From: Naegleria gruberi
Lineage: Eukaryota
Assembly: GCA_000004985.1 (NCBI GenBank)
Contig: GG738858.1
Length of the DNA: 64,000 bases
Reading direction: 5' to 3' (one strand)
Shown here: positions 6,001 through 58,834 of the stretch, one piece after another
Numbering within the stretch: the stretch's first letter is position 1
How the letters are laid out: every line of letters starts with the position of its first letter
Notes under the pieces: model-generated
The model's input: the letters and a program-made list of their open reading frames with translations, nothing else
Databases searched by the model: none
Told to the model about the DNA's origin: nothing
Made by a program: the position numbers and the translations under genes

Positions 6001-6306
6001 NNNNNNNNNNNNNNNNNNNNNNNNNNNNNNNNNNNNNNNNNNNNNNNNNNNNNNNNNNNNNNNNNNNNNNNNNNNNNNNNNNNNNNNNNNNNNNNNNNNN
6101 NNNNNNNNNNNNNNNNNNNNNNNNNNNNNNNNNNNNNNNNNNNNNNNNNNNNNNNNNNNNNNNNNNNNNNNNNNNNNNNNNNNNNNNNNNNNNNNNNNNN
6201 NNNNNNNNNNNNNNNNNNNNNNNNNNNNNNNNNNNNNNNNNNNNNNNNNNNNNNNNNNNNNNNNNNNNNNNNNNNNNNNNNNNNNNNNNNNNNNNNNNNN
6301 NNNNNN
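1..6306. other. Assembly gap (N run, 6306 nt). Shorter N gaps also lie at 7720-7769, 16182-17230, 18905-19430 and 21671-22048, with a single n at 7822.
   Basis: Runs of n in the sequence itself. Confidence 0.99.
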
Positions 6307-7719: not shown

Positions 7720-7984
7720 NNNNNNNNNNNNNNNNNNNNNNNNNNNNNNNNNNNNNNNNNNNNNNNNNNTATCAAAAGAGAAAGATTAACATGTTAGAGC
7801 TCAATATCTCTATGGCTATATNTCAGCTGTTCAATAGAGATGATATATTGTATAATGGAATCTGTTGCTACTACTACATGGTGCTCTTACTAATTTTGAA
7901 GAAGTGCATCTAATACTACTAAAACTATATTGTTGAGTTTAAAACACAAGAATATCTTTGAAAATCTAGTTGACACACTAATAA

Positions 7985-15953: not shown

Positions 15954-16181
15954 TTAATTTCTTTGAATTATCTTTTTTAACTTTATCTGCAAGTGATTGT
16001 TTTTCATGTTTCTTTTCATCTCTTTTTTTTCTTCTTTCTAATTTTGATTGTTTCTTTTTATCAGATATTTCCTGTATTGAAGAAGAATCCGATGATGATT
16101 GTTCTGTTTGTTGATTTATTTCAATTGATTGTCTATATTCATCAAAGAGACGAAGTTGAAATTCTAAAAGTGATTTACTCA
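15954..16181 (-). CDS. 3' end of a gene whose body lies in the 16182-17230 gap. The C-terminal fragment is Lys-rich.
   Basis: Minus-strand ORF reading '...SKSLLEFQLRLFDEYRQSIEINQQTEQSSSDSSSIQEISDKKKQSKLERRKKEMKRN...*' and running into the N run. Stop (tta on plus) at 15954-15956. Confidence 0.35.
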
Positions 16182-17346
16182 NNNNNNNNNNNNNNNNNNN
16201 NNNNNNNNNNNNNNNNNNNNNNNNNNNNNNNNNNNNNNNNNNNNNNNNNNNNNNNNNNNNNNNNNNNNNNNNNNNNNNNNNNNNNNNNNNNNNNNNNNNN
16301 NNNNNNNNNNNNNNNNNNNNNNNNNNNNNNNNNNNNNNNNNNNNNNNNNNNNNNNNNNNNNNNNNNNNNNNNNNNNNNNNNNNNNNNNNNNNNNNNNNNN
16401 NNNNNNNNNNNNNNNNNNNNNNNNNNNNNNNNNNNNNNNNNNNNNNNNNNNNNNNNNNNNNNNNNNNNNNNNNNNNNNNNNNNNNNNNNNNNNNNNNNNN
16501 NNNNNNNNNNNNNNNNNNNNNNNNNNNNNNNNNNNNNNNNNNNNNNNNNNNNNNNNNNNNNNNNNNNNNNNNNNNNNNNNNNNNNNNNNNNNNNNNNNNN
16601 NNNNNNNNNNNNNNNNNNNNNNNNNNNNNNNNNNNNNNNNNNNNNNNNNNNNNNNNNNNNNNNNNNNNNNNNNNNNNNNNNNNNNNNNNNNNNNNNNNNN
16701 NNNNNNNNNNNNNNNNNNNNNNNNNNNNNNNNNNNNNNNNNNNNNNNNNNNNNNNNNNNNNNNNNNNNNNNNNNNNNNNNNNNNNNNNNNNNNNNNNNNN
16801 NNNNNNNNNNNNNNNNNNNNNNNNNNNNNNNNNNNNNNNNNNNNNNNNNNNNNNNNNNNNNNNNNNNNNNNNNNNNNNNNNNNNNNNNNNNNNNNNNNNN
16901 NNNNNNNNNNNNNNNNNNNNNNNNNNNNNNNNNNNNNNNNNNNNNNNNNNNNNNNNNNNNNNNNNNNNNNNNNNNNNNNNNNNNNNNNNNNNNNNNNNNN
17001 NNNNNNNNNNNNNNNNNNNNNNNNNNNNNNNNNNNNNNNNNNNNNNNNNNNNNNNNNNNNNNNNNNNNNNNNNNNNNNNNNNNNNNNNNNNNNNNNNNNN
17101 NNNNNNNNNNNNNNNNNNNNNNNNNNNNNNNNNNNNNNNNNNNNNNNNNNNNNNNNNNNNNNNNNNNNNNNNNNNNNNNNNNNNNNNNNNNNNNNNNNNN
17201 NNNNNNNNNNNNNNNNNNNNNNNNNNNNNNTTGCAATATATTCCAAAAAATTAATAAAAATATTTTTTATTTTAATAATATATATAAAAATGGATACAAA
17301 ATTAAATAGTAAATACTACATTAAATTAATAATTATATCATTTAAA

Positions 17347-18296: not shown

Positions 18297-19878
18297 GTAT
18301 TATTATTAGTATTACTAGTATTAGTATTATTATTATTATTGTTAATATTTTTAATATAATTTTTTAATAATTGAATAGATTGATCAAATTTCTTTTGTTT
18401 AAAATATAAATGTGATAAAATTAAAGTTGGAATTTCTGAATTATTATACTAAATAAATTAAATAATTCATTTTGAATAATTTTTTCACATTCATCAAATT
18501 TACCTAAATGTAATTGTAATAAACAATTATTTAAAGTAACACCTCTAATTTGTTCAGTTGTTAATTTACCTTGTAATTTATCTTGATAAGCATGTTTTAA
18601 TTTCTTTTGAGCTTCCAAATCAAAATGTGTTGTATTACCATTATTAGAATTACTATTATTAGTAGTTACATCTAAAATAGCAACAAGATTATTAGCAGCA
18701 ACTGCACCTGCAACTGTATCTTTAGATTGTGTAAAAACTTGTTCAAATAATTTTTTAGAAACATCAACTTGTCCATTTAAATATTTAACATAAGCTAATT
18801 GTACTAAAATGGAAGAAATTTCATTTGTATCTTCAATTTTACATAATTTTTGTGCAAATTCTAAATATTTCTCAGCTTGTTCATAATCTTTTAATCCAAT
18901 AGATNNNNNNNNNNNNNNNNNNNNNNNNNNNNNNNNNNNNNNNNNNNNNNNNNNNNNNNNNNNNNNNNNNNNNNNNNNNNNNNNNNNNNNNNNNNNNNNN
19001 NNNNNNNNNNNNNNNNNNNNNNNNNNNNNNNNNNNNNNNNNNNNNNNNNNNNNNNNNNNNNNNNNNNNNNNNNNNNNNNNNNNNNNNNNNNNNNNNNNNN
19101 NNNNNNNNNNNNNNNNNNNNNNNNNNNNNNNNNNNNNNNNNNNNNNNNNNNNNNNNNNNNNNNNNNNNNNNNNNNNNNNNNNNNNNNNNNNNNNNNNNNN
19201 NNNNNNNNNNNNNNNNNNNNNNNNNNNNNNNNNNNNNNNNNNNNNNNNNNNNNNNNNNNNNNNNNNNNNNNNNNNNNNNNNNNNNNNNNNNNNNNNNNNN
19301 NNNNNNNNNNNNNNNNNNNNNNNNNNNNNNNNNNNNNNNNNNNNNNNNNNNNNNNNNNNNNNNNNNNNNNNNNNNNNNNNNNNNNNNNNNNNNNNNNNNN
19401 NNNNNNNNNNNNNNNNNNNNNNNNNNNNNNGCTAATAATAATTCATTAGTATTATTTAATTCATTTCTATTAGATTGAATAATTTTCAAGGCTTCCTCTG
19501 CTTTATTTAATCTATACAAGGAATAAATCTTTTGAAAATTAGTGGATTGCAAATTTTCAATAACCTTGTTAAATTCTCCTTTTTGAATTTGATTAACAAT
19601 TTTTAATTGTTTTAATTGATTATTATTCTTATCATTGGATAATACTATTATTATTATTATATGATGAAGATGATCAAGATGGTAATGTTGATGATTAATA
19701 TGAAAGACGGAGAAGAAGATTAATACAGATAAGATTAAAATGATGATGAATATATATTCAACTACTACTAATATAACAACATACACTTTTCCAATGTAGA
19801 ATGAATTAAATCTTCATCTTCATCTTCGATGGCTTGTTTTAATTGTTGATAATTGGACAAGAGATTCTTTGGTGCCAT
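17347..19878 (-). CDS. Signal recognition particle 72-kDa subunit (SRP72) homologue. Multi-exon, interrupted by gap 18905-19430.
   Basis: N-terminal exon 'MAPKNLLSNYQQLKQAIEDEDEDLIHSTLEK' (ATG at 19876-19878) followed by minus-strand gtgtatgt. TPR-region match 'FQKIYSLYRLNKAEEALKIIQS' vs human SRP72 'FEKAYCEYRLNRIENALKTIES'. Ser-rich linker and basic C-terminus '...EEKKKQRKKRRNKLPIHS...FKSRWETKKK...AAKKKKKK*', matching the SRP72 'KKKKKGKLPKNYDP...PERWLP' tail. One frame discontinuity near 17860-17900. Confidence 0.6.
18266..18345. repeat. (TTA)n / (ATT)n trinucleotide microsatellite degenerating into tta/gta variants.
   Basis: 'attattattattattattattattattatagtattattattagtattactagtattagtattattattattatt'. 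Confidence 0.9.
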
Positions 19879-21670: not shown

Positions 21671-22048
21671 NNNNNNNNNNNNNNNNNNNNNNNNNNNNNN
21701 NNNNNNNNNNNNNNNNNNNNNNNNNNNNNNNNNNNNNNNNNNNNNNNNNNNNNNNNNNNNNNNNNNNNNNNNNNNNNNNNNNNNNNNNNNNNNNNNNNNN
21801 NNNNNNNNNNNNNNNNNNNNNNNNNNNNNNNNNNNNNNNNNNNNNNNNNNNNNNNNNNNNNNNNNNNNNNNNNNNNNNNNNNNNNNNNNNNNNNNNNNNN
21901 NNNNNNNNNNNNNNNNNNNNNNNNNNNNNNNNNNNNNNNNNNNNNNNNNNNNNNNNNNNNNNNNNNNNNNNNNNNNNNNNNNNNNNNNNNNNNNNNNNNN
22001 NNNNNNNNNNNNNNNNNNNNNNNNNNNNNNNNNNNNNNNNNNNNNNNN

Positions 22049-28643: not shown

Positions 28644-31356
28644 ATGAGTCGAGTCACACCACTATCACCCTCACAGCAGAGTCAAATAACGCCCTCAACA
28701 ACGACATTATCCTTTAAATCTTCGGATTCTAAGGGTCAACAGATGAATAATTCTGCTAGTACAATTCAAATATTAAATTCAAGACCAATATCAGCATCAG
28801 GTACGCAAAGAAGTAATTCACTTTTTGATGAAACTTACATTACTTCAAACTCTGAATTTGAAGCGGAGAGAATTGATAAACAAATGCCAGTCATGATGAG
28901 ATTAGAATCAGCAGTATTTGAGCCTAAGAAGAATACTTATGATCCAAATCAATTTTCATCAAGTACTTTAAATTTAAATTCTAAAAGTGAAACTAATCTA
29001 TCAACTATGGCTTTAAATGATCCAACTCCATCTGAAACAGGTAGCATTTATTCATTAGCTTCAAGTCCAAGAAGTTTTTATTTTAGTTTTAGATGTTCTT
29101 TATTATGTTCAATGTTTTTTTTAATTATTTCACCAATTTTATTATTATTAGCAATTTCCATAACCTTTTCTTTATTAACTTCAGTTGAAGTTGAAAAACA
29201 AGTTGTTTTATTATCTTTATATAGAGCTGAATTATATGTTTCTGATTTTTTAGATCTAGGAAGGAAATTAACAGTTTTACAAAAACAAATGATTACTGAT
29301 AATTATTATTCCAAGTTTGAAACTGATGATTATTTCAACACTTTTAATAATTACAAATCAATTTTAAAATCACTTGCTGCAGTTCACAAACATAATAAGG
29401 CTTCTTTCTTTTTATTTGATTTTACTTCTCGCAATGCTGATTACATTTATGTAAATACAAAACAAACCGAAACAAGAATTTGGAATTCCAAATTATATGA
29501 TAATCAACAAGAATATTATTACATGTCAAATATTGAATCTTTACCATATTCCAACATTACTAAATATAACTTGACGAAGGATTTAAAATTTGATGTTATT
29601 GGATATATTGAACAAGAATTTTGGAATCCGTTCGCAGAAACATATTTTAAATTATCACAATCGTATGATAAAGCTCTTGTACCAATGTCAGTACAAACAC
29701 AAGGTGCTGACAGTGTTGAAGAACGAGTTTACATTTGTTATCAGGAGAATGTCTATTCTCAAATTAATGAAACAAAATTCCTAGGCGTTACAAGTGCAAA
29801 TGTTGTGGTGAGAGAATTGGCTTCCTTTATTAAGAATTATCATGTTTCAGCAAGAGGTTTTGCACTTGTTGTAGAAATGAATTATGATCAAGAATCAAAT
29901 ACATTGAAAAAGAGAATGGTTGCCTATAAAGATTATAATCAATTGGCAAAGAAAGATCCAGAAAGTACAGGTGGTTATAAAATACCAGACGCAGAAGAAA
30001 TTGAAGATTTGTTTTTAAGATTTGTTATCACACAGATTATACCTAATAATGTTCATGATGTGAATATCAAATCAGAAGAATTGTTTAGATTCATGTATGG
30101 AGGTGAATCTTATTTAATGGCTTTTAAGATTGTTTCATCTTCAAAAGATTTAAACATGCAATGGTTGACTATTATTTGTGCTCCTGAAATTGGTATGTTT
30201 TTTTATTATCAAAAATTGAATCATATTTGAAATGTATATTGTTGAATTGTGTAATATAGATTTTATTGGTAATTTACTTTTATTAACAGGTCTTAATATT
30301 GGTGTTAGTATATTAGCATTCTGTTTTTCAATGGTATTTGTATTCTATTTTGCCTCTTCAATTTCTAAACCATTATTATATTTCTCATCTGAGAGTAAAG
30401 CCATTTCAAATCTTAAAGTACATCGTGGAGGAATTATCAAGACTAGAATTCGTGAAATTTTACTTTTATCTGAAGCTTTTGAAAAGATGAAGACAACATT
30501 GAGATCATTTATGAGATTTGTTCCTCGTCAATTAATTGTGGAAATGGTAGAAAAGGGAATTGAAATGAAATTAGGTGGTCATATTCATGAAAATATTACA
30601 ATTTTATTTTCAGATGTTGAAGACTTTACAACATGGAGTGAAAAATTAGAACCACAATTTTTAATTAGACATGTTTCTGAATATTTCCATGTCATGACAG
30701 AAGAAATTGTGAATGAAGAAGGTACACTTGATAAATATATAGGTGATGCAGTAATGGCATTCTGGGGAGCTCCTAATTTTATGTATGACACTTCAATGAG
30801 AGCTTGTAGAGCTGCTATTAAATGTCAAGAAAGAATGGACAAGTTGAGAAAAATATGGGAGAAACAAAACAAACCTTTATTTAAATGTAGAATTGGATTA
30901 CATACTGGTTCATGTATTATTGGTAATATTGGTTCTTTATGGAGATTAAATTATACTGCTTTGGGTGATTCTGTTAATTTAGCATCAAGATTGGAAGGTC
31001 AAAATAAGTTTTATGGAACTGAAATTTTAATTAGTCAAGATACTTATAAGAATGTTGCTAGTAGTTTTAATTGTAGAAGAATTGATACAGTTGGTGTAAA
31101 GGGTAAATCGGTTGGTATTACTATTTATGAATTAATTTCAAGAAAGGAAGAAACTATACCAAATCCTAAAATTGAAACACGTTTGAAATTAACTCCAATT
31201 TATGAATCTGCACTTGCTGAATATCAATTAGGAAGATTTACTGAAGCACTTAAATTGTTAATGACAAGATGTCAAGATATTGATTGTAATGACTTGGCTA
31301 CTCAAACGTTAATTGATAGATGTAAAGAATACATTCAATATCCACCATATAATTGA
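28644..31356 (+). CDS. Receptor-type class III adenylyl/guanylyl cyclase with ACG-like architecture: TM, about 340-aa extracellular sensor region, TM, cyclase catalytic domain. Two exons: 28644-30192 and 30290-31356.
   Basis: TM1 is 'FYFSFRCSLLCSMFFLIISPILLLLAISITFSLL'. The intron runs gtatgtt...ttaacag (30193-30289). TM2 is 'GLNIGVSILAFCFSMVFVFYFASSI'. Catalytic motifs: 'ITILFSDVEDFTTWSE', 'LDKYIGDAVMAFWGAP', 'RIGLHTGSCIIGNIG', 'GDSVNLASRLEG'. Total about 870 aa, similar to Dictyostelium ACG (858 aa). The CHASE-type identity of the ectodomain is inferred from architecture only. Confidence 0.75.
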
Positions 31357-31556
31357 ATGAAAAGTAAAAATATGTTCAATTTCTATGATAATCAATCTCT
31401 AGGTCAATACTTGTGAGATTACAATTAATTTCGGGCTTTACCTCGCTAGAAAGTGATCCGAGTTAACACAGTAAAAAATGATTTCCAATTCATCTCCAAT
31501 TTATTACAGCAAAATAAGCGTTCCACACTATTGAGAAAAAGCCTTGATCAAAAAAA

Positions 31557-32405
31557 ATGTCAACAACAACAACAATTAACAATATGGAAGTTAGCAAAAC
31601 TGCCCGCACTGTAATGATTGTTTGTATGCTATTGATGGGTATGACACTCATTCATGGCGCAACAACAGCCATTCAACTTAAAAGTTCAGGTGATACTGTG
31701 ACTGGATCCGTCAGCAAGGGAATTATGAATATGTATTATATTAATGTTGATAGTGTTAGTTCAATGTCTGTCCAATTCACCAACACTTATTCATCATCAT
31801 CTGTTAATGTTTATATCAAAGCTAATCAACCACCAACTACCTATAATTATGATAGTATTATTACCTATCCAGGTGTTTCAAAGAGTATTATTACATTGAA
31901 GAATTCAACTCTCACTCAACCATATTATATTGGTGTTTATGGTCTTGGTAGTTCTACTAATTATTATACTTTACAAGTTAGTGTCATCTCTGGACAAGAT
32001 ATTGCCAATTGGGTTATTGGTGTTATTGTTGCTGGTAAGTTGTTATCTTTACATTGATCTAATATCATACTCCTTTTTCATCTTTTCATACTAATCATCA
32101 TCATCTATTTAGCTGTTATTATCACCATTTTGTGTGCTGTTGCTGCTGTATTAATTCCAATCTTGATTTGTTGTGGTGTTCTCAGTTGCACAGTTTGTTG
32201 TGGAGCCGCAGCAGGTGCAGCAGCTGGATCAGCTGGATCATCAGGAACCTATCAACAAATTCATCACAATCATACCAATCATGTTCATCATTCTATTTCT
32301 CAACCAATTGCTCAACAACCAACTACTTATTATTCTGGTCAACAACCACCACAACAACAACAATACTATCCACAACCAACTTCTGCTAATTATCAAAAGG
32401 TTTAA
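31557..32405 (+). CDS. Single-pass membrane protein with a Cys-rich TM/juxtamembrane region and a His/Gln/Pro-rich cytoplasmic tail. Two exons: 31557-32034 and 32113-32405.
   Basis: Signal/anchor 'TVMIVCMLLMGMTLIHGA', a 130-aa ectodomain, then intron gtaagt...atttag. Then 'AVIITILCAVAAVLIPILICCGVLSCTVCCGAAAGAAAGS...QQPPQQQQYYPQPTSANYQKV*'. Confidence 0.55.
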
Positions 32406-39203: not shown

Positions 39204-42200
39204 ATGATGTCGGTTCAATCGATAGTGGGAGGAGAAGGTTCTTCTAGAAGGACCAGAGGATCAATTTATTCTTCAATGATTCTGATCATGTCAATTGTGA
39301 TGATGATGATGGTCATTTTGATGGGTCAACAGGAATATCATTCTTGTAGTGCTGTTGTGAATCCAACATGTTTTGGTTTTACCAATAGTTCAGGTTTTGA
39401 ATGTGTTCATCAATTGGGATCATGTATTAGTGATAATACTTGTTTCTTTTCTCCAACAACTTCAATCATTGGAATGGGTAGTAATACCTATTCACAACTT
39501 GGTATTACTGCTTCAAATTTTACTGATTATCCAATTAGAGTCAACTCTACGTACAATAGAATTTTCTATATCAGTAAAATGACAATGACTAATAGTTTAG
39601 TAACAGACTACAATGGAGATGTGTTAATGTCTTCAACTCAAGATCAAAAATTCATTCAAGCCTCCACTGCACTTCCTGCTTTGACAACTATGAATATTGG
39701 TGGTGATTTTCCAATTGCAATTTTAGGAGATGATACCACTACTGCTTTAATCACAACCACTAACAAGATTTATGTTTATGGCGATCAGACAAATAATAAT
39801 TTGGGTAGAGAAACTCTTGCTGATGAGGTTGTTTCCTCTCCTACTGCTTTGGGTTATCAGAATGTTGTTGATGCTTCTATTTCAAAATTGGGTGGATGTG
39901 CAATTCATAGCAATAATGGTGTTGACTTTAATATTACTATTTGGGGACCAGCTGCTAAAACCATGTCCAATGGAGTTGGTTATTTAGCATTGACTAATCA
40001 AGCCATTAATAATGATAATTCTCGACCATTTGTAAAATGTGAAATTATTTCTGCTAAGAATTCAAGTGGTTATGATGTTCCAGCAGTTTTTGTTATGGAT
40101 GATTTGGGTAATTTGTACTCTGGTGGAGCCAGAAGTAATTTGGAAGGTTGTAATCCAACCATCAAAAATGCATGTGACTTTGGTGAATGTTTTGCTGCTC
40201 AAAAGATTTTATCAAGTGTAGATTCATTCAAGTGTTCAGCCACTCATTGTGTTGCTGCAATTAATGGTACAGATATTTATGTTTGGGGAAATAACACAAA
40301 TGGTCAACTCGGTAATTCTGCCTATCTCCAAACACCAACAAGGATTCAAGTGTTTACTCCAGAAACTATAATTCAAGTAACTGCTACTAAGAAAAATATT
40401 TATGCATTAACTGAATCTGGTTTTATTTATGGTATTGGTAGTAATGAAAAAGGTCAATTGGGTCGTTCTCCATCTACTTTCCTCTCTAGAACCTATTTCA
40501 CTAAAATTGTAATTCCAGATCAAAGAAGAAAGATTTGGCATATGGCTGATGGTCCAAACAGTGAACATTTGTTGGCCTTTACTGGCTTCAAATGTGCATC
40601 TCAATACTCAGGTGGTGATTGTTCCACTCCTCTTTTCAACTGTGCAGGTTATGCTCCAAGCGATTCTGCTGTTTGTGGAGGTAATGGTATTTGTGCTGAT
40701 ACTGATTATTGTATCTGTTCTTCTGGATTTATTGGTCAATTCTGTAACACTACAGTTTCATCAGCTTGTTATGGAAAGCCAACAAATTTGGCTTGTAGTA
40801 ACAGAGGTTCTTGTATTGGTGTTGATAATTGTCAGTGTGCCTCACCATTCACTGGCAACCAATGTGAATTGTTCCAAAATGATTTTAATTTTGTTGCAAA
40901 TTTCTCACAATTACCAAACTCAAAGATTTATGATAACTTTAATATTTCTAATCTTGTTATCACCCCTACACTTGGTATTTCCAACCCAGCTTATAATACT
41001 ATTTGGGCCTATACTCAATATACCTCAAAGCTTTATTTGACAGGTCCATCTTCATACAGTTGGCAAGGTAGTCAATTATCATTCGATAAGAATTTTGTTA
41101 CCAATTTGAAACCAGGTTATTATGTTCTCAAATCAGAAAGTATTGCCAATGTTACCAATCAAATAATTGTTGTTAACAATACTTTTACATTTGAAAAGGT
41201 TTCTACATCTTTAACAAATCCACTTACATTAGATCAAACAGGTGTAATCTATGTATCACAGTTTGCATCTGTTGTTGTTTCAGCACTTATTACTGACCCA
41301 ACCTTTGATGCCTCAACATTTGATTATGACTGGCTTTCCAGTAATGATCAAGCTAATTATGTTTCTGTCAAAGCATCCACATCTATTGTCAATAATAATA
41401 AGATTACTTTTACCAATCTTGCATCTCAACTCCTTCCATCAAACTTTGCTGGTACCAATCACACTGTTTTTTTCAAAGTAACATACAATAGATATAGTGG
41501 CGACTCCAATTCATTTAGTGCTTATTTCACAGTTGTCATCAGTACAAAGGCCTATGCCCCAACTATTGCTCTAACTAGATTCCCATTTAGCAGTTATTTG
41601 TCAACAACAAGAGCAACAAGTCTTTCAGCTGTTTTGACCTTCACTGAAACTATTCCTTCAGATTTGGTTATTAGTTACTTGTGGACCTGTGATAAATTTA
41701 CTATTACAGATGCCACACAAGCTGCTTTAATTATCTATCCAGCTCAATTGACCATTGATACTTCATACCAATTCTCCCTGACTGTCACTGTATCATACAA
41801 GGGAGATGTTAACACATATGTTTCTACTTTAAATATCAAAACTCCACCTGCTTTACCAACATATTCTGTTAATACTCAAATACTCAGCATTTCTCCAAGC
41901 GATGGTAGTGGTGTTGCTCTCCTCACCTCTCACAATATCACAGTTGCTCCTCTTCCAGTTTCTGATACTAGAATTCTCAAGTATACTGTCAGATATTCTT
42001 TCAATGCAAGTGATGCTGCATCCTTTAAAGATTTATTATCTCTCAGTTCAACAATTTTGAATGATAGTGCTTATCTTCCATATGGTACTATGACACTTCA
42101 AATCTACATTGAAGACGAATATGGAAACAAATTGACAGCTGGCAACTTGGCTGTTTCAACTCAAAATATTGACTTTAGTTCACTTGCTAATATTATTAAC

Positions 42201-44732
42201 ACAAGAGATTTGTCTTTGAATCAAATTGAAACTACAGCAACAACACTCAATTCTGCTGCTGACCAAGATACTAAATCCCTAAGAGAAAAACTTTCAGAAA
42301 TTCTTATAGCCAAACTTAATGGTCAATCTTCTTCGACAAGTCAAGCTATTTTGAGTATTTCTCAAAAACCTTCAGATATCACTGCTAAAACTTCTCAACT
42401 CCTTGTTTCTGGTGTTACAACTTTGGGAGGTAATCTCAGATCAATTTATGCAGCAGGTGGTGAAGCAGATAAAATAGCTAGTGCCTTGACTGGTTCATTG
42501 TCAAACATTGTTGACAACAAGAATATTACTACAAATGAAACCAATAAGGATATTACCAATTCTTTGGCTTCTATCTCAAGAGAACTTGCCAAGATTTTAC
42601 TTCCATCCCAAACCTTGTCAATCAGCTCTAATAATTTCAATATCCTTGTTTTTGGATCTTCCTCTACAAAATCCAGTAATTATACTATTGAAGGATCATC
42701 AATTGGTACTCCTGACAACTTTGATGAATATCTTTCTGGTGCCACTTCATCACTTAACTCTGCCTCTAAGGCCTATGGTGTTGAACTTGTCTACTACAAA
42801 TCTTCATTGTTTGAATCAGTTGGAAAAGCCTCTAACAGTACAAGATCTAGTAATATTTTATCATTTGTTGTTAGTGCCTCCACATCATTTGGTAGTGAAA
42901 GTAGATCGACAGTTTCTATCAAGGGATTGACGAAACCTTTGGTGTTTACATTTACTGTAGCTAATGGTTCTACAAATGGATTCGAATGTAAATTTATTGA
43001 CGAAATTAATAATTATTGGAGTACAGATGGTTGTTCCTCTTTGATCCTCAATGACAACACTGTACAATGTTCATGCAATCACGCAACTAAATTCTCTACA
43101 TTCAGATTATTTACTCAAGTTGTATCCCAAGAAGAATATCTTGGAAGTACTGGTATTAGAATTGTCAATGTTATTTTTGGTGCTATTTATTTCTGTCTAG
43201 CTGCTTTGGTGTTCATTGCTTTGATTATTCTCAGAAACATCAATCCTGTAAGATCAAGATACATTGGTCCTTACATTGGTTTGATTGCAATTATGGTTGA
43301 CTCATTGATCATTTCATTCATCCAAAATATTGTAGTTTTATCTTTGGATAAGGGTATATCCAATTCAACTGCCGATATTGCCAATATTAGAAGAATCAGC
43401 GACGGTTTTAACTATTTCAATGTAATCCTTGTCATTCCTCTTTACTTGACCGCTTTCTTCACTTTCTTGGTCCAAATTGTTAGATACTTTATCAAGAGAC
43501 ACATGTATGAATTCATGTCAAATAAGGTTCTTTTCAATGCTCAAATTTATAGAGCTATTACTTCCAAGATTGCCTTTTGGGTTACCTTGCTTTCTTCTTT
43601 GGCAATAATTATGGCTTATTACACCATTTGGGTTGGTTTGGGAGGAGGAAATGTTTTCGTTGTTAGTACAAACACTGCTCAACAAGATAAGGAAAGAATG
43701 ACATTTACATATATTACTTCCCTTTCCTACTTTGGTCTTGCATGGATAATTGCTATCTGTATGGTTGTTATTGCAGCTTGGGATCTTTTCTACATGAATC
43801 GCCATTTATTCACTTCATGTTGTTATTCTCAAGAAGATTTGTTGAAGAAATCCTCTAGCAATCTTAATCAAACTAGAAATAGAGTTGAAAAACTTCTCAA
43901 TATGTTATCTAGAACAAAGAAACAAAAAGTTCAACTTGGAAAGTCTGCATGGTTGACTGTCCCTCAAGTTTACTACTTTACCGATGACAATTTATATTTC
44001 AGATTGGAAATTCACGTCTTTATTACAGCCTTTGTTTTCCTCACCATCAACTATCTTGCTGGTATTGCTGATATTTCAGTAATTTCAGTTGGATTAACCA
44101 ATGCTGGATCCCGTTTGGCTCCTCAAATTGTTTCCCTAATTGCTGGTATTCTCTACACATTCTGTTTGATTGCTGCTTTTGGTGGTGTGATTGTTGTCTC
44201 TTACCTTACTGAAAGACGTAGAAAGCAGTACCATAAGGATGTAGCTCCTCAATCAAAGATGGATGAAGATGAATTGAACATTGTATTGAGTGATAGATTT
44301 GGTAAACCATTGTTTGTTGAATTCTGTCAAAAAGAATTCTCACTTGAAGTAAGTTTTGGAAATTTTAATTTTATTAACACATTTAAATAGAATGTTTATT
44401 TCTATGATGCAATTACTGATTTCCTTAGAAGTGCTGATTCTAAATCAGATGCAGATGTTAAGAATTCCATTTCTGACATGTTTGAAAAGTATATCAAGAC
44501 TGGTTCTGAATATGAAGTCAACTTGCCTAGCGCCTCAAAGAAGGCCTTTATCACAACACACGAGTGTTCACAACCATCCTCCAAGATGGTTAAGGATATG
44601 TTGGACAATGTAATGATTTCAGTCATGTACAATTTGAAGGATACTTACAGTAGATTCTCAATGACTGAAGAATACAAGCTCTACCAACAAAGTAGAGACA
44701 ACATCAGTATGTTGGAAAACAACTTCTTGTAA
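39204..44732 (+). CDS. Large receptor with RCC1-like repeats, EGF-like Cys modules, an S/T-rich stalk, GAIN/GPS, 7TM and a C-terminal RGS domain. Two exons: 39204-44348 and 44391-44732.
   Basis: RCC1-type repeats: 'VYGDQTNNNLGRE', 'VWGNNTNGQLGNS', 'GIGSNEKGQLGRS'. EGF-like: 'CAGYAPSDSAVCGGNGICADTDYCICSSGFIGQFC', 'CSNRGSCIGVDNCQCASPFTGNQC'. GPS motif 'CKFIDEINNYWSTDGCSSLILNDNTVQCSCNHATKFS'. Seven hydrophobic helices span 43140-44230. The RGS domain is split by a 42-nt intron (gtaagt...aaatag): '...PLFVEFCQKEFSLE|NVYFYDAITDFLRSADS...EYEVNLPSASKKAFITT...YSRFSMTEEYKLY'. Confidence 0.75.
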
Positions 44733-44914: not shown

Positions 44915-47047
44915 ATGTCCACACTCACGCCAAACAACTACTTGAAGCGTAAGCGAAGTGATGAAAACTCACCAACGGACCAAGAGAATGTAAATCCTAA
45001 CAAGAAGACTAGTAAAATCCCAGTACTAAAACACTCTAATAGCTCCTCCTCTCTCAACTCATCAACACTTTCCACCAACAAAACCACACCAGTTAAACCA
45101 ACCTTACCAACAAGAACCAATTCAATCCGAGCAAATGCCACTTCTAAGATTAATATGCCAAAGCCTACATCTACACCTTCCACTAGAGTCTCACACTATC
45201 AAAAAACTACACCAAATAGTACAAATCCAAATGCCAGACAATTCGGTTCTGTCTCTGGTAGAATGCTTGCTCCAGGAAGAACAACCCAACAACAACAGCA
45301 GCAACAACAACAACTTCAACAACAATCGAAGGTTGAACTTGAACAAACCAAGTCTCAACTTTCACTTGTTTCCGAAGAAAATAACCACCTCAAGACTAAA
45401 ATCGATGAACAAACCAATCAACTCAAAGATTTGGGTCAGTTAGAAGAAAGAACAAAGTTCCTCTCCACTCAAGCAAACAAATTCCAAGAAGAAAACTTCC
45501 AATTGAAGTCTACAGTCACATCCCAAGAAATTGAAATTAGTGCCATGAAAGGTGTTCAAGAAAGATTACAATCTGATAATATTGATTTGAGAGTTAAAGT
45601 CAGCTCTTTGGAAAAGGAAGTCTCAATGGAAAAGAAGCAAGCAGAAATGGACAAGGCCACCATTAAAATTCAATACGAAAGTGAGCTTAGAATTCAAAAA
45701 GAAACATTCGAACAGCAAATTACTGAAATTACTGAAATTAAGGATAAAGAGCTTTCTCTCACTAAAGACAGACTCACTAGGGAAATTACCAAGTACAAAA
45801 CTGATTTGGAAAAGACTCAATTTGACTTGAGCTTATCAGTTGAAGATGCCAACTCCAAAGCAGAAAAGATTAGATCTCTTGAAGAAATTATCAGACAACA
45901 AGCAGAAGATATCAAATCTCTTGAGAGTAAGAGACATAAGGATGAAAATGAAAGAAGAAGATTACACAATCTCATTCAAGAACTTAAAGGTAATATCAGA
46001 GTTTATTGTAGAGTCAAGCCTGCCCAAAACTTGAAATGTATAGATTATCCAGAAAATGATGTTGATGAAAGATCCATCAGTGTTCAAGAGGAATCCAGAA
46101 CATCTGCAACTGGTGCTTCAGTTGATGGCAAGAAGGCCTTTTTCGAATTTGACAAGGTATTCAAACCAAACTCAAAGCAAAGTGAAATTTTCCACGAAAT
46201 TTCTCAACTTGTACAAAGTGCACTTGATGGTTTCAAGGTTTGTATCTTTGCCTATGGTCAAACTGGTTCTGGTAAGACTTTTACTATGGAAGGTCCACCA
46301 AGAGATGTAATCTCAAAGCTTGATATTGAATCACAAAAAGAAGTTGTTGGTATGATTCCAAGAAGTGTTGACCAAATCTTTGAATCAGCTGAAAGACTCA
46401 AAGAAAGAGGATGGACTTTCTCAATCGTTGCTAGCTTTGTAGAAATTTACAATGAAACTATTAGAGATTTGTTAGACTCCACAACTAAGGACAATGTAAA
46501 ACATGAAATTAAGCATACTAAAGATGGCTCTACATCAGTAACTGGTATCAAATACGTCAACGTTTCTGGTCCACAACACGTTCAAGATTTGTTAAAGATT
46601 GCTTCCAAGAATAGAGCTGTTGCAGCAACTCAATCAAACGATAGATCTAGTAGATCACATTCTGTCTTTACTTTGCAAATTACAGGAAGAAATGATATCA
46701 CTGATCAAACAACTCAAGGAGCATTGAATTTAGTCGATTTGGCAGGTAGTGAAAGAATTGGTACCAGTCAACCAGCTAACGGTGAAAGAGTTAAAGAAAC
46801 CCAAAACATTAATCTCAGTTTGACATGCTTGAGTAATGTTGTAAATGCTCTTTTGAATAAGTCATCACATGTTCCATACAGAGACTCTAAATTGACCTAC
46901 CTCCTTCAAAATTGTTTAGGCAAAGATGCCAAGACTTTGATGTTTGTTAATATTGACCCAGATAATGTAAATGAATCTCTTCAATCACTTCGTTTTGCTG
47001 CTAAGGTAAATTCATGTGAAGTTAATGCCTCAAGAAAGGTAAAGTAG
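44915..47047 (+). CDS. Kinesin-14 (C-terminal motor, minus-end-directed type). 710 aa.
   Basis: N-terminal Ser/Thr/Gln-rich tail, then coiled coil. Neck 'KGNIRVYCRVKP'. P-loop 'GQTGSGKTFTM'. Switch I 'SSRSHSVF'. Switch II 'DLAGSE'. The motor sits at the C-terminus. Confidence 0.88.
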   Translation: MSTLTPNNYLKRKRSDENSPTDQENVNPNKKTSKIPVLKHSNSSSSLNSSTLSTNKTTPVKPTLPTRTNSIRANATSKINMPKPTSTPSTRVSHYQKTTPNSTNPNARQFGSVSGRMLAPGRTTQQQQQQQQQLQQQSKVELEQTKSQLSLVSEENNHLKTKIDEQTNQLKDLGQLEERTKFLSTQANKFQEENFQLKSTVTSQEIEISAMKGVQERLQSDNIDLRVKVSSLEKEVSMEKKQAEMDKATIKIQYESELRIQKETFEQQITEITEIKDKELSLTKDRLTREITKYKTDLEKTQFDLSLSVEDANSKAEKIRSLEEIIRQQAEDIKSLESKRHKDENERRRLHNLIQELKGNIRVYCRVKPAQNLKCIDYPENDVDERSISVQEESRTSATGASVDGKKAFFEFDKVFKPNSKQSEIFHEISQLVQSALDGFKVCIFAYGQTGSGKTFTMEGPPRDVISKLDIESQKEVVGMIPRSVDQIFESAERLKERGWTFSIVASFVEIYNETIRDLLDSTTKDNVKHEIKHTKDGSTSVTGIKYVNVSGPQHVQDLLKIASKNRAVAATQSNDRSSRSHSVFTLQITGRNDITDQTTQGALNLVDLAGSERIGTSQPANGERVKETQNINLSLTCLSNVVNALLNKSSHVPYRDSKLTYLLQNCLGKDAKTLMFVNIDPDNVNESLQSLRFAAKVNSCEVNASRKVK

Positions 47048-47472: not shown

Positions 47473-49071
47473 ATGACTGAATTAACACCACAACAAATTA
47501 GTGTCAGCTTTGTTACTCAATATTACTTTATTTTGTCATCAAATACTAAAAACCTTTTCAAATTTTACAAGACCGAATCTGAGATGACTCATGAACACTC
47601 AACTGTTGTTAAGCAATTACCCGGAAATATTAATCCTAATGCAGCAGTTGGAGTTGATAATATTGAAAAGAAGATTTCAACCCTAGGCTATGAAGAATGT
47701 AAAGTCAAATTGACCTATGTTGACTCACAACGCTCATTGAATGGAGCTGTTTTTGTTTTTGTAGAAGGTGTTATGACAAGACAAGTTGACCAAAAGGAAA
47801 TGAATTTCACTCAAACTTTCCTTTTGGCTGAACAAGAAAATGGATACTTTGTTAGAAATGATTATCTTCGTTTCATTCCTGATACATCTAACATTCCAAC
47901 CACTGTTCAAGCTACTCAAAGCAATCCTCCACTTGCTGAATCATCAACCACTGCTTCTGTTTCCAGCACTTCAAGCAGTGAACATCACTCTAAATCACAA
48001 AATGGTCATCAATTATCCTTCTCTCTTAATCCATCCACTGTTAACATTGTTTCCTCTACTACCAACGGTTCTCACTCTCCAAGAAGTGAAGCCAGTTCAA
48101 CTGCTGCTACAGCTGGTGCCAGTTCTGTTTATGGTGGAGCAGAAGAAAATCAATTAGATGATGAAGCTGAGGAAGAAGAAATTACAGTAGTTGAAAAGCC
48201 ACAACAAAATCAACAACCAACTCAAGCTAAATCAACTACTAGTGTACCTGCTGAAAATAAGGAACCACACGGAACAATTTCTTATGCTGCTGCTGCTAGT
48301 GGTAGAGATTATAAGAATGAATCATCTGAACAAACTCAACCAAAACACAAGTCTGGAAAGAAACACAACAAGGAAAATAAGGAACACAAGACTGAACAAC
48401 ACAAGACCGAAAACAAGGAACACAAGACTACCACTGAACAACAACAACACAATAAGGAACACAAAGAACACAAGGAACACAAAGATCACAAAGAACACAA
48501 GGAACATAAGGACCACAAGAATGAACATCATAAGAATGAACACAAGAAACCAGCCACTGCTCCAGTAACTGGTGAACAAAAGCAAGTATCAGCTGAAAAG
48601 AAGGAAAAGACTTTCCGTGGAAAGGATCATCCACTTAATAAGCATGCTATCTATGTTCGTGATCTTCCTGTTGGCACTAAGGATAGTGATTTGAAGGAAG
48701 CTTTTGCAGCTTATGGTAGCATTATTGATATTAACAACAAGTCTGGTAAGGATCAATCATACAATAAGTATGCTTTGATTTTCTTTGAAAAACAACAAAG
48801 TGTTGATGAAGTATTGAAGAATCCAGCTGTCTCAATCAATAATCACCAATGTCCAATCACAAAATACCAAAGAAAGCCAAAACAATACCCAAGAACTCCA
48901 AACCAACCAACATCTACAACCACCACCAGTACACCAACAAAGACTGAGACCACTACTACTCCTGTCACCAATAATACTCAACAACCACGTAATAATAATA
49001 ACAATAATCGTGCTCCAAGACAAAAGTATACTCGTGCCACCAGTAATGAAAGTGAATCAGAAAAGAAGTAA
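47473..49071 (+). CDS. NTF2-like domain plus RRM protein (G3BP-like) with a His/Lys-rich tandem repeat in the linker.
   Basis: NTF2 fold start 'QQISVSFVTQYYFILSSNTKNLFKFY'. RRM 'HAIYVRDLPVGTKDSDLKEAFAAYGSIIDIN...YALIFFEK'. Linker 'HKEHKTEQHKTENKEHKTT...HNKEHKEHKEHKDHKEHKEHKDHKNEHHKNEHKK'. Confidence 0.8.
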   Translation: MTELTPQQISVSFVTQYYFILSSNTKNLFKFYKTESEMTHEHSTVVKQLPGNINPNAAVGVDNIEKKISTLGYEECKVKLTYVDSQRSLNGAVFVFVEGVMTRQVDQKEMNFTQTFLLAEQENGYFVRNDYLRFIPDTSNIPTTVQATQSNPPLAESSTTASVSSTSSSEHHSKSQNGHQLSFSLNPSTVNIVSSTTNGSHSPRSEASSTAATAGASSVYGGAEENQLDDEAEEEEITVVEKPQQNQQPTQAKSTTSVPAENKEPHGTISYAAAASGRDYKNESSEQTQPKHKSGKKHNKENKEHKTEQHKTENKEHKTTTEQQQHNKEHKEHKEHKDHKEHKEHKDHKNEHHKNEHKKPATAPVTGEQKQVSAEKKEKTFRGKDHPLNKHAIYVRDLPVGTKDSDLKEAFAAYGSIIDINNKSGKDQSYNKYALIFFEKQQSVDEVLKNPAVSINNHQCPITKYQRKPKQYPRTPNQPTSTTTTSTPTKTETTTTPVTNNTQQPRNNNNNNRAPRQKYTRATSNESESEKK

Positions 49072-50880: not shown

Positions 50881-51007
50881 ATAATTTAACCCATGTAAAC
50901 AATTTGAATTCATTATTGGTGGATATTGTTTGAGAAGATTTGAAATCTAGTTCATTATTTGGAGGTAATTTTAAGGATTCAACATTTCCTAGTTTTACAA
51001 TAAAAAG

Positions 51008-51124
51008 ACTACAGCACCACAGGTTCCCAAGTTGTCTCCAACCTCAGTACTGATGTGGCTCGACGATGCTTAACTTCTCAAATCGGACGGGATGAGGTGC
51101 ATTCATCGTGATATGGCCGTAGCC
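51008..51124 (-). rRNA. 5S ribosomal RNA gene (about 117 nt), followed on the minus strand by a T-run (plus 'taaaaa' at 51002-51007) as Pol III terminator.
   Basis: Reverse complement: 'GGCTACGGCCATATCACGATGAATGCACCTCATCCCGTCCGATTTGAGAAGTTAAGCATCGTCGAGCCACATCAGTACTGAGGTTGGAGACAACTTGGGAACCTGTGGTGCTGTAGTC'. This matches universal 5S blocks: ACGGCCATA, CATCCCGTCCGAT, GAAGTTAAGC, AGTACT, GGGAGAC-like, TGGGAA, GTGCTGTAG. The 5'/3' ends are complementary (helix I). Confidence 0.8.
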
Positions 51125-57331: not shown

Positions 57332-58834
57332 ATGAATCATCAACATCTCTCAAAATTTGCTCAACCATCATCACTGATGAGAGTGTTCAGTGCTGGTACT
57401 AGAAAATGTAAAGGCTTTTCTCTTGTTCAATCATCTTCTTGGATTAATAATAGGAAATTCCAATCAAATAATATTAGACAATTTTCATCAACAAGTTTGA
57501 ATAGGAATGAAAAACAAGCAAGACAAGATTTGTATTCCTATGAAGTTTATGCTCTTCCGACAGAAAGAGATTATGATAGAATGATTCCGGATAGTGTTGA
57601 AGATAAACAAACTATTGTTGATTTGAATATGGACATTAGAAATGTATTAAATTATGTTCTTTTCTTGGCTTGTGATAAATATTCAGCAGAACGTTTAAAA
57701 GGATATCAAGAACATAAATTTAGTTTTGGAAAGGATAGACTTGTTAGTATTTTACAGTTAGCTCATGATGATTCAACTAGTCATTCAGGAAAAAAGCGAA
57801 GTTTAGAAAGTATTCTGGATAAGTCAACCACTGATTATATTGATATTATTGATGCTGTAAATTCTCACGTTCAATATATTAATAGAGAATTGAACAGACT
57901 TGATTTAAGTATTTCAGAGGAATACTATTCTGGTTCACCAAAAATTTCTGCAGAGGAATCAAATACTTCTCTTGCACAATGTGAAAAGGATATTGAAAAA
58001 TTGAATAGTGTTTTTAATAAGATGTATTCTATGGCTGATGTTGATCCATTGGATGATGATCTCATTGATAATGAAGCATATCACCCAATTGCATTGTATC
58101 TTAAGAATAAGATGAGAATAGTTTCTGTTAAAATGGACTTACAAAAGGACAAAGACAAGTTTAAGGATATTGAATCATTTCTCAAAATGGAACATGACAA
58201 GGATGAAGTTTTGGCTATGTGTAACAAAATTCAAGAAAGAGCTCTCCTCTATATGTCAACTCTACAATTGACAAAAGCCTATTCTGACATTACTCTATGC
58301 ACTCATATTACCAAACTAGTAGTTACAAAAGATGATACCAAGAAAGATATTTTAATTACTAGAGGATTAATTACATTACAATCATTAATTTACATGTACT
58401 CACTCTTGAAGGAATATGTTGTTATCATTAATAGAAAAGTTGATTTTGATTTTACTACAGAAAATCCAAAAGATTTACATCACTTTTTTGTTGAAAATTT
58501 CAAGGTTGTTCAACCAGTTATGTTTGACAATCAAATTGTTGAACTCGATTCTCAACGTTTAGCTTCTCTAGTAGATTTGAAAAATATTTCCCTTAAACTT
58601 GCTGTTTATGCTTCTAATCAACTTGAAATGCTGAAATATGATTTAGATGGTAAGAAGTTTGAATTTTTAGATAAATACCAGAAAGATTTAGACCTCACCA
58701 TGAAAGTTCTCAAATTCCAAGCAATTTATGTAGTCCTTAAAAAAGCTTTATCATTCACTCTTTGGGCAATTGCTTCTATTTGGCTCTTTAGATTTATTTC
58801 ACGAAAGCTTGAAGGAGAACCACTATTCAAATAA
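57332..58834 (+). CDS. Hypothetical protein (500 aa) with a mitochondrial-presequence-like N-terminus and a single C-terminal TM ('FTLWAIASIWLFRFI').
   Basis: Intact ORF from ATG. No recognisable catalytic motif. Confidence 0.5.
   Translation: MNHQHLSKFAQPSSLMRVFSAGTRKCKGFSLVQSSSWINNRKFQSNNIRQFSSTSLNRNEKQARQDLYSYEVYALPTERDYDRMIPDSVEDKQTIVDLNMDIRNVLNYVLFLACDKYSAERLKGYQEHKFSFGKDRLVSILQLAHDDSTSHSGKKRSLESILDKSTTDYIDIIDAVNSHVQYINRELNRLDLSISEEYYSGSPKISAEESNTSLAQCEKDIEKLNSVFNKMYSMADVDPLDDDLIDNEAYHPIALYLKNKMRIVSVKMDLQKDKDKFKDIESFLKMEHDKDEVLAMCNKIQERALLYMSTLQLTKAYSDITLCTHITKLVVTKDDTKKDILITRGLITLQSLIYMYSLLKEYVVIINRKVDFDFTTENPKDLHHFFVENFKVVQPVMFDNQIVELDSQRLASLVDLKNISLKLAVYASNQLEMLKYDLDGKKFEFLDKYQKDLDLTMKVLKFQAIYVVLKKALSFTLWAIASIWLFRFISRKLEGEPLFK

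Follow-up and report, generated by a model that had tools for sequence, protein, structure and literature searches.

The window analysed here, a 64,000-nucleotide stretch of the Naegleria gruberi contig GG738858.1, contains two adjacent open reading frames on the plus strand, 28644-30230 (528 aa) and 30232-31356 (374 aa). The first-pass annotation had joined them into one intron-split gene, and our analysis bears this out: a GTATGT donor at 30193 allows both ORFs to be joined in frame, and the DNA between the exons is low in GC (17.5%, versus ~30% in the exons). An in-frame stop lies 6 nt upstream of the initial ATG. The gene is organized as follows:

28644..30192, plus strand: exon 1, codons 1-516 and the first base of codon 517, opening with the ATG at 28644
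30193..30259, plus strand: spliceosomal intron of 67 nt, phase 1, GTATGT...ATATAG
30260..31356, plus strand: exon 2, including the TGA stop (31354-31356)

Three AG dinucleotides (30259, 30289 and 30316) are possible in-frame acceptors. The intron had previously been drawn as 30193-30289; its donor is confirmed, but its acceptor is misplaced by 30 nt. Splicing to 30289 removes a 97-nt intron and yields an 871-aa protein without the ten residues DFIGNLLLLT, whereas splicing to 30259 removes 67 nt and yields an 881-aa product in which they are kept. We place the acceptor at 30259 because four orthologues keep this stretch, which reads APEIDFVSRMVMLISLNVG in Willaertia magna, APQTDFTSNVFMLAGINVG in N. 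fowleri, APEIDFNGNMVLLACLNIG in N. lovaniensis and IDFVGNVILLSVCNIG in an environmental relative. With this acceptor, the BLASTP alignment to the bacterial protein P0001 is gap-free across the second membrane helix and its score rises from 229 to 242 bits. The 97-nt intron and a 124-nt alternative were rejected: both are in frame, yet they score lower against the homologues and delete conserved residues. From the sequence, acceptors 30289 and 30316 could still serve as minor alternatives. In an environmental relative, P0230, an intron sits at the same codon: its sequence stops at ...APEI and continues into read-through residues.

The neighbours of the gene encode a cullin, a MOR2-PAG1_C-domain protein, TruD/Pus7 and a kinesin-14. 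Three ORFs in the window match known N. gruberi proteins exactly:

44915-47047: kinesin-14 ORF, 100% identical to N. gruberi D2V9R0
47473-49071: ORF, exact match to N. gruberi D2V9R1
57332-58834: ORF, exact match to N. gruberi D2V9R3

The host is thus the heterolobosean amoeboflagellate N. gruberi, and these matches rule out a dictyostelid source; the suggestion that the gene is a dictyostelid lineage marker fails on the same proteins. Bacterial contamination was also rejected, because the gene has a spliceosomal intron, shares its GC content of ~30% with its neighbours and is flanked on both sides by eukaryotic genes.

The protein contains two strong hydrophobic segments (aa ~150-180 and ~517-550). 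Hydropathy, Pfam and the AlphaFold2 (AF2) model agree with the topology first proposed for it, an ectodomain between two transmembrane helices followed by a single class III cyclase domain. From the amino to the carboxy terminus it consists of a disordered tail, TM1, a double-Cache sensor, TM2, a HAMP-like linker with a transducer helix, a class IIIb domain and a C-terminal tail:

28644..29078, plus strand: N-terminal cytoplasmic tail rich in Ser, Thr and Asn, aa 1-145, which AF2 predicts to be disordered
29088..29183, plus strand: TM1, aa ~149-180, by hydropathy, continuous with the sensor's long stalk helix
29184..30191, plus strand: extracellular double-Cache (dCache_1-like) sensor, aa 181-516
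30192..30357, plus strand, with the intron inside this range: TM2, aa ~517-549, by hydropathy and the AF2 helix 516-566
30349..30519, plus strand: HAMP-like linker, aa ~547-603, then a helix containing the invariant Pro605, which connects to the cyclase domain
30571..31146, plus strand: class IIIb nucleotidyl cyclase domain, aa 621-812, Pfam PF00211
31165..31353, plus strand: C-terminal three-helix tail, aa 819-881, AF2 helices 819-839, 843-854 and 862-876

The N-terminal tail (AF2 pLDDT below 50 over aa 1-140) is absent from the bacterial homologues, which begin at TM1 (residue 4 of P0258 corresponds to residue 138 of the query). A single AF2 helix at 149-222 covers TM1 and the stalk. After TM2, the model shows a helix-connector-helix arrangement (516-566 and 581-603), and in the homologue alignment P554 is at least 90% conserved while E582 and P605 are invariant. 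The Pfam HAMP model (PF00672) scores 12.4 bits (E 0.21) here, below its cut-off of 25; 12 of the 55 full-length homologues match it at E<=0.01.

The ectodomain of ~335 aa carries three N-x-S/T sequons (N304, N309 and N375). Searched on its own, it is not hit directly by Pfam's dCache_1 (PF02743), even at E<=10, and an NCBIfam search returned nothing meaningful. The assignment to dCache_1 therefore rests on transitive profile and fold evidence. The Pfam model is matched by 51 of the 55 full-length homologues, and hhalign relates the heterolobosean and bacterial ectodomain profiles over the whole ectodomain (296 columns, probability 98.9%, E 1.2e-17). The ectodomain model (pLDDT 89.7, pTM 0.88) shows the features of the dCache fold, namely a long N-terminal stalk helix and two stacked PAS-like (PDC) modules between two transmembrane helices, and its top 50 Foldseek hits are dCache-type (tandem-PAS) sensor domains. 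The first-pass annotation had expected a CHASE domain (PF03924) in this region. Pfam gave no match to CHASE in the whole protein, nor in the ectodomain alone at E<=10, and in the tally of the top 25 families none of the 55 full-length homologues has one at E<=0.01.

In the ligand pocket, the AA_motif of the dCache_1AA amino-acid sensors consists of Y121, R126, W128, Y144 and D173 in PctA numbering (Gumerov et al. 2022), and the D173N change in PctA by itself abolishes binding (PMC8915833). This motif is absent from the N. gruberi protein, where the equivalent residues by alignment are W327, E332, Y334, ~V348 and N386 and the pocket signature YDPRxRPWY...D has become FWNPFAETYF...N. The bacterial consensus (YDPRxRPWY...Y...D) has kept the greater part of it. 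In each of the four heterolobosean sequences aligned here, other residues stand in for the canonical amino-acid-binding motif: R126 is changed to E or Y, W128 to Y or F, and D173 to N.

The C-terminal tail is common to the bacterial homologues, with BLASTP alignments reaching aa 879, and a minority of the homologues match TPR models. The N. gruberi protein ends in PPYN followed by TGA, exactly at the nearly invariant Trp of the family, and lacks a W-x-G-V...K end motif of ~10 aa whose W and G are at least 90% conserved (alignment A1). A second intron that would restore this motif was rejected by inspection, as there is no GT donor before the TGA. The missing motif may mean reduced function, or may reflect an allele or an assembly error.

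With such an ending, the gene could be a paralogue in decay or without function, drifting towards a pseudogene among the at least 81 cyclase genes that make up the very large Naegleria repertoire (PMC9928731). We consider this improbable. Consistent with decay, the TGA in place of the Trp is followed just downstream by an out-of-frame relic, AAT GAA AAG TAA (NEK*), that recalls the ends of the sister-species proteins (...WDGVHRNHEK* and ...WDGVYHNVEK*), and the ligand-pocket motif is gone. In addition, a collection of 15 billion proteins holds no matching protein model: neither the 881-aa nor the 871-aa product, nor either ORF alone, has an exact match there, although neighbouring genes are present. 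Six unspliced neighbouring ORFs likewise have no exact record in the collection. Against decay, the 881-codon frame is intact but for its last ~10 codons, every catalytic residue and every invariant residue of the HAMP and transducer region is retained, and the fold is predicted at high confidence. Moreover, the pocket changes are common to Willaertia, N. fowleri and an environmental relative, which indicates a long-standing, conserved alteration and not recent decay.

The catalytic domain is recognized by the Pfam Guanylate_cyc model (PF00211) with an E value of 2.7e-23 (83 bits; the cut-off is 21.9). The six catalytic residues of class III are all present (D635, D679, K675, T749, N756 and R760 in the 881-aa numbering), so that the full motif set claimed by the first-pass annotation is confirmed; each is conserved in 49 to 55 of the 55 homologues. 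R745 is conserved as well. The motifs ILFSDVEDFT and ITIYELIS occur in the protein. The nearest PDB entries, by sequence and by fold, are CyaB (3r5g), a bacteriophytochrome-fused cyclase, Cya2, CyaC and OaPAC/bPAC. CyaB aligns at E 1.6e-31 with 34% identity, a target-normalised TM-score of 0.88 and all catalytic residues in register; the class IIIa-type mammalian AC5 (E 1.2e-12) and the ANP receptor (E 1.6e-10) are more distant.

Substrate specificity in these enzymes is read from a pair of residues. Class IIIb is marked by Thr or Ser in place of the substrate-specifying Asp, and the resulting Lys/Thr pair is the signature of class IIIb adenylyl cyclases, as in CyaC, CyaB and sAC. The pair looked for at the outset was Lys/Asp for ATP or Glu/Cys for GTP. 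Of the former, the Lys is found (K675) and its partner is Thr749 instead of Asp; the latter is not present. By this pair and by its nearest relatives, the catalytic domain is class IIIb, and the ATP specificity read from the pair makes cAMP the most likely product. A guanylyl cyclase is very improbable by comparison. Pfam PF00211 spans both activities, the structurally close Cya2 (2w01) is a guanylyl cyclase, and the N. fowleri orthologue is automatically named 'Guanylate cyclase domain-containing protein'; however, Lys675/Thr749 is neither a Glu/Cys nor a Glu/Gly pair, and these positions are held by Lys in 55 of 55 homologues and by Thr or Ser in 54 of 55 (49 Thr, 5 Ser).

There is hardly any prospect that the protein corresponds, by orthology or in function, to the germination adenylyl cyclase ACG of dictyostelids, an intramolecular osmosensor of the CHASE type: its host is Naegleria and not a dictyostelid, neither the protein nor any of its 55 homologues gives a CHASE hit, a HAMP-like linker follows TM2, the Lys675/Thr749 domain is nearest to Pseudomonas aeruginosa CyaB, and among the top 150 relatives all those checked by name or genomic context are heterolobosean or bacterial-type. 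According to the literature, the catalytic domain of ACG belongs to class IIIa and carries the motifs FFLDIAGF and MKTWYLMG (PMC2535757), neither of which occurs in the class IIIb domain of the N. gruberi protein; this contrast is drawn from the published motifs. ACG is refuted here as orthology, on which the sequence evidence bears, and not with respect to osmosensing itself. The first-pass annotation had named, as evidence against its own reading, an ectodomain without CHASE similarity and closest homologues among the soluble guanylyl cyclases. The former is what we find, but the closest homologues are membrane-bound adenylate cyclases of the bacterial type.

We are therefore confident that the 881-aa product is a type-II-like, bacterial-type receptor adenylyl cyclase encoded by a two-exon N. 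gruberi gene. True orthologues, recovered by an exhaustive HMMER search where word-index searches had missed them, occur in W. magna (50% identity), N. lovaniensis (48%) and N. fowleri (39%). The bacterial proteins P0258, P0195, P0260 and P0298 align from residue 138 or 148 of the query through 879. P0258 adjoins a gene with Pfam SBP_bac_10, a context that we read as planctomycete-like, and P0001 adjoins a Legionella_OMP gene; a further 599 relatives come from bacterial genomes of many phyla. A bacterial gene probably entered an ancestor of Naegleria and Willaertia, and would later have gained the intron and the N-terminal tail.

Judged from sequence and predicted structure, the protein most likely functions as a ligand-gated homodimeric adenylyl cyclase. 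Like other class III cyclases with a single catalytic domain, it would form a homodimer with two active sites at the interface, in which D635 and D679 would bind metal, K675 and T749 the adenine of ATP, and R745, N756 and R760 the phosphates and the transition state. An extracellular small molecule may bind the membrane-distal Cache module, and the signal would pass from the stalk helix through TM2 and the HAMP-like linker to the register of the catalytic dimer, thereby setting the rate of cAMP synthesis. More tentatively, the heterolobosean sequences (Naegleria spp. and Willaertia) may form a clade of horizontally acquired receptor cyclases, restricted to Heterolobosea, in which a rebuilt pocket recognizes a ligand other than an amino acid and couples this cue to cAMP. 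If so, these receptors would give an amoeboflagellate a direct route from an external cue to cAMP, with a possible role in encystment or in the switch from amoeba to flagellate. Within such a clade, the N. gruberi copy would be a C-terminally truncated one that seems not to be in the reference protein set.

Among known systems, the bacterial dCache_1-HAMP-class IIIb adenylate cyclases of ~700 aa, such as P0258, P0195 and P0001, have the same architecture throughout: TM1, double-Cache ectodomain, TM2, HAMP-like linker, transducer helix, IIIb Lys/Thr domain and helical C-tail. They occur in Verrucomicrobiota, Alphaproteobacteria, Planctomycetota, Legionellales, Spirochaetota and others. Their identity to the N. 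gruberi protein is 26-30% along the whole sequence, and 33-43% in the part that starts with the membrane-proximal Cache module. The Naegleria protein differs from them in its added 145-aa disordered tail and spliceosomal intron, in a sensor that escapes Pfam dCache_1 and has a changed pocket motif, and in the loss of the terminal W-x-G-V...K motif. Of the solved catalytic domains, those of CyaB (3r5g) and Spirulina CyaC (1wc0), both class IIIb adenylyl cyclases, rank among the closest. CyaB has a membrane MASE2 module and CyaC has intracellular sensor domains; neither is known to carry a HAMP linker or a Cache sensor outside the cell.

Within Naegleria itself, a Cache-domain 'bacterial-type adenylate cyclase' has already been reported for paralogues (Upadhyay et al. 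2016, PMC4822843). Its supplement lists D2VLR9_NAEGR (894 aa) and D2V3A4_NAEGR (745 aa), from the same organism and with the same reported pair of dCache_1 and Guanylate_cyc; D2VLR9 is also very similar in length, with its Cache domain at 323-521. Judged by accession order, these are probably a different locus. The accessions D2V9R0, D2V9R1 and D2V9R3 run along the scaffold, so the present gene would be expected near D2V9Q0-Q5, if annotated, and the part of the PMC4822843 table examined contains no D2V9 entry. The gene is a fairly ordinary case of a protist with a signalling gene of bacterial type, and the literature already notes genes of this kind. It nevertheless adds to the Naegleria cyclase repertoire a well-defined member with an extracellular sensor, a corrected gene model and an orthologue in the pathogen N. 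fowleri.

The likeness to AcgA is one of layout. In both proteins, two transmembrane helices bracket a large extracellular Cache-superfamily sensor; each has one class III domain and presumably acts as a homodimer, and the length of 881 aa is similar to that of ACG as the first-pass annotation gave it. AcgA is defined as a CHASE protein (PMC7316887), and ACG is restricted to Dictyostelia with conserved synteny (PMC2535757, PMC7316887), which the N. gruberi gene does not share. The layout of sensor between membrane helices and cyclase recurs in unrelated lineages and is thus no lineage marker. Both modules of the N. gruberi protein, the dCache_1-like sensor and the class IIIb domain, come from other families than the CHASE sensor and class IIIa domain of AcgA, and recognizing this corrects a tempting misassignment.

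The gene at 28644-31356 (+) very probably encodes a bacterial-type receptor adenylyl cyclase of Naegleria gruberi, with a predicted dCache-HAMP-class IIIb architecture. Two adjoining plus-strand ORFs, 28644-30230 (528 aa) and 30232-31356 (374 aa), are fused in frame when a GTATGT donor at 30193 is joined to a downstream AG, and the ATG at 28644 is preceded by an in-frame stop 6 nt upstream. The excised DNA is AT-rich (17.5% GC versus about 30% in the coding sequence on either side), and the first-pass annotation of both ORFs as one gene with a single intron is thus borne out. The intron proposed there (gtatgtt..ttaacag, 30193-30289) keeps its donor but not its acceptor. Three in-frame AG acceptors are available (30259, 30289 and 30316). 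Splicing to 30289 gives a 97-nt intron and an 871-aa product, whose BLASTP alignment with P0001, a bacterial protein and the top homologue of the first-pass search, contains two junction gaps that sum to exactly 10 residues. Splicing to 30259 gives a 67-nt intron and 881 aa, adding DFIGNLLLLT; the junction gaps vanish and the score rises from 229 to 242 bits. Equivalents of these ten residues occur in four relatives. In an environmental contig, too, an intron interrupts this codon: its protein (P0230) stops at ...APEI and is followed by intron read-through. We therefore take the intron to be 30193-30259; acceptor 30289 is a possible minor alternative, and both it and 30316 could act as alternative 3' splice sites.

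Cyclase gene, junction segments in relatives and catalytic residues (881-aa numbering)
28644-30192 (+): first exon
30193-30259 (+): intron, as taken here
30260-31356 (+): second exon
Willaertia magna KAL9641840, ten-residue junction segment: APEIDFVSRMVMLISLNVG
N. fowleri FDP41_005515, ten-residue junction segment: APQTDFTSNVFMLAGINVG
N. lovaniensis C9374_008629, ten-residue junction segment: APEIDFNGNMVLLACLNIG
Environmental relative, ten-residue junction segment: IDFVGNVILLSVCNIG
Metal residues: D635, D679
Base-recognition residues: K675, T749
Phosphate/transition-state residues: R745, N756, R760

Pfam detects only Guanylate_cyc (E 2.7e-23) and a sub-threshold HAMP (E 0.21) in the protein. 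The closest solved structure by sequence is P. aeruginosa CyaB (1.6e-31), other top relatives being a bacteriophytochrome-fused cyclase, cyanobacterial Cya2 and CyaC, and OaPAC/bPAC; mammalian AC5 (1.2e-12) and the membrane guanylyl cyclases (about 1e-10) score lower. Fold comparison of the AlphaFold model gives the same ranking (CyaB: target-normalised TM-score 0.88, 34% identity). The catalytic residues are kept in 49-55 of 55 homologues. The substrate-specifying pair, for which Lys/Asp (ATP) or Glu/Cys (GTP) had been envisaged, is neither of these but Lys/Thr; Lys with Thr replacing Asp is the signature of class IIIb adenylyl cyclases.

The ectodomain, suspected at first to be CHASE, has no match to PF03924 or any other Pfam family, even at E<=10. 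When 1.84 billion representatives were searched exhaustively with HMMER, heterolobosean orthologues ranked first and were followed by many proteins of about 700 aa (33-43% identity, query residues 375-869 covered), four of which align from TM1 to the C terminus (query 138/148 to 879). Among 55 such relatives, Pfam assigns Guanylate_cyc to all, dCache_1 to 51, MCP-like_PDC_1 to 50 and HAMP to 12; CHASE appears in none among the matches listed (E<=0.01). Profile-profile comparison of four heterolobosean with 52 bacterial ectodomains aligns the entire domain (98.9% probability, E 1.2e-17, 296 columns), and the ectodomain alone is modelled with confidence (pLDDT 89.7, pTM 0.88) with a predicted long stalk helix that leads into two alpha/beta modules. 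Profile and model thus identify a putative divergent dCache_1. Its three N-x-S/T sequons are compatible with an extracellular location. The sequence after TM2, SISKPLL...REILLLSEAFEKM, carries a family-conserved Pro554 and an invariant Glu582 and is modelled as helix-connector-helix, consistent with a HAMP-like linker. A helix with invariant Pro605, which we take to resemble the cyclase-transducer element of class IIIa/b enzymes, joins this linker to the catalytic domain. We infer a homodimer in which the two catalytic domains would form two symmetric ATP sites; the membrane-distal Cache module would receive a signal and, by way of the stalk helix, TM2 and HAMP, alter cAMP synthesis.

The dCache_1 amino-acid-binding motif comprises Y121, R126, W128, Y144 and D173; a D173N exchange by itself abolishes binding (PMC8915833). 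Most of the motif is retained in the consensus of the bacterial relatives (YDPRxRPWY...Y...D); the aligned N. gruberi positions are W327, E332, Y334, about V348 and N386, so that an amino acid appears unlikely as ligand. Since the R126, W128 and D173 positions are also substituted in Willaertia, N. fowleri and the environmental relative, the changes point to a conserved new specificity instead of decay.

The C terminus gives some weight to the view that the gene is partly disabled. The usual end, in orthologues as in bacterial relatives, is PP.(N/K/E/V)W(D/N)GV....K, with W and G at least 90% conserved; in N. gruberi (31340-31380) PPYN is followed by a TGA that takes the precise position of the near-invariant Trp. 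Directly after TG, out of frame, AAT GAA AAG TAA encodes NEK-stop, which resembles the ends of the N. lovaniensis (...NHEK) and N. fowleri (...NVEK) proteins. This relic, together with the TGA, is the chief ground for partial disablement and suggests that a few bases were deleted, with a shift of frame, or that the sequence contains an error.

The surroundings are ordinary eukaryotic genes (cullin, TruD/Pus7, kinesin-14 and an NTF2+RRM protein). ORF 44915-47047 is N. gruberi kinesin-14 (XP_002679253, D2V9R0; 100% identity, 782-kb scaffold), with N. fowleri (68%) and Willaertia magna (54%) as next matches, and ORFs 47473-49071 and 57332-58834 are exactly N. gruberi D2V9R1 and D2V9R3. The window is therefore from Heterolobosea, not Dictyostelia, and the cyclase does not serve as the strong lineage marker that it had been thought to be. 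The exact 871-aa and 881-aa products and several neighbouring unspliced ORFs are absent from a collection of 15 billion proteins, and profile searches with named matches return no N. gruberi entry for the cyclase; kinesin and two further genes on its 3' side do have N. gruberi entries there. Reference gene models may thus differ in this stretch, or lack the cyclase.

Other features of the window
51006-51124 (-): complete 5S rRNA gene (Rfam RF00001, 105 bits), solitary amid protein-coding genes
39204-44390 (+): unspliced 1728-aa ORF with RCC1-like repeats, a teneurin-type EGF match and a GPS (GPCR proteolysis site) motif, a mix unusual in a heterolobosean; no annotated product on record
31557-32405 (+): two-exon gene (256 aa; intron 32035-32112, GTAAGT...TTTAG) with a signal or TM segment, Cys-rich TM helix and His/Gln/Pro-rich tail; no Pfam match to the first exon
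1-6306, 7720-7769, 16182-17230, 18905-19430, 21671-22048: N runs (8310 in total, the first 6.3 kb included), which are assembly gaps or masked stretches, so that ORFs spanning them (e.g. 15993-17309) are artefacts

With one genome scanned for each prokaryotic species, 599 relatives were found, including Verrucomicrobiota, Alphaproteobacteria, Planctomycetota/Gemmataceae, Spirochaetota, Bradyrhizobium and Legionellales (Fluoribacter gormanii and Coxiellaceae, the latter including a MAG). Genuine bacterial surroundings are seen for two of the homologues: P0258 adjoins an SBP_bac_10 gene and glycosyltransferases, a context we read as planctomycete-like, and P0001 (Logan SRR22746138 contig, gene 3367-5460) lies beside a Legionella_OMP gene, which indicates a Legionella-like source. 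Such bacteria are amoeba-associated, which may be relevant to how the gene reached amoebae. Named eukaryotic matches are confined to Naegleria and Willaertia, besides the environmental contig with the same-codon intron. This distribution fits acquisition of the gene from bacteria by an ancestor of the Naegleria/Willaertia amoebae; the gene would then have gained the intron and a disordered 145-aa N-terminal tail. Upadhyay et al. 2016 already record for Naegleria a 'bacterial-type adenylate cyclase' with a Cache domain, and their table gives D2VLR9 (894 aa) and D2V3A4 (745 aa) (PMC4822843). Given the scaffold order of the D2V9R-series accessions in the window (D2V9R0, D2V9R1, D2V9R3), the locus is most likely a further paralogue, its Cache domain missed by Pfam. 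It adds a member to a known kind of cyclase, and its general interest is low.

The first-pass identification as an ACG-type cyclase holds for the coarse topology only, and the ACG/CHASE/dictyostelid interpretation is unsupported beyond it. CHASE and dCache_1 are placed in one superfamily (PMC4822843), so that a likeness of fold to the ACG sensor is expected. In the literature AcgA is by definition a CHASE protein (PMC7316887). It has a catalytic domain of class IIIa, in which the motifs FFLDIAGF and MKTWYLMG are conserved, and synteny of the ACG genes is kept throughout Dictyostelia (PMC2535757); the Naegleria cyclase differs from AcgA in its sensor, its catalytic motifs and its synteny alike.
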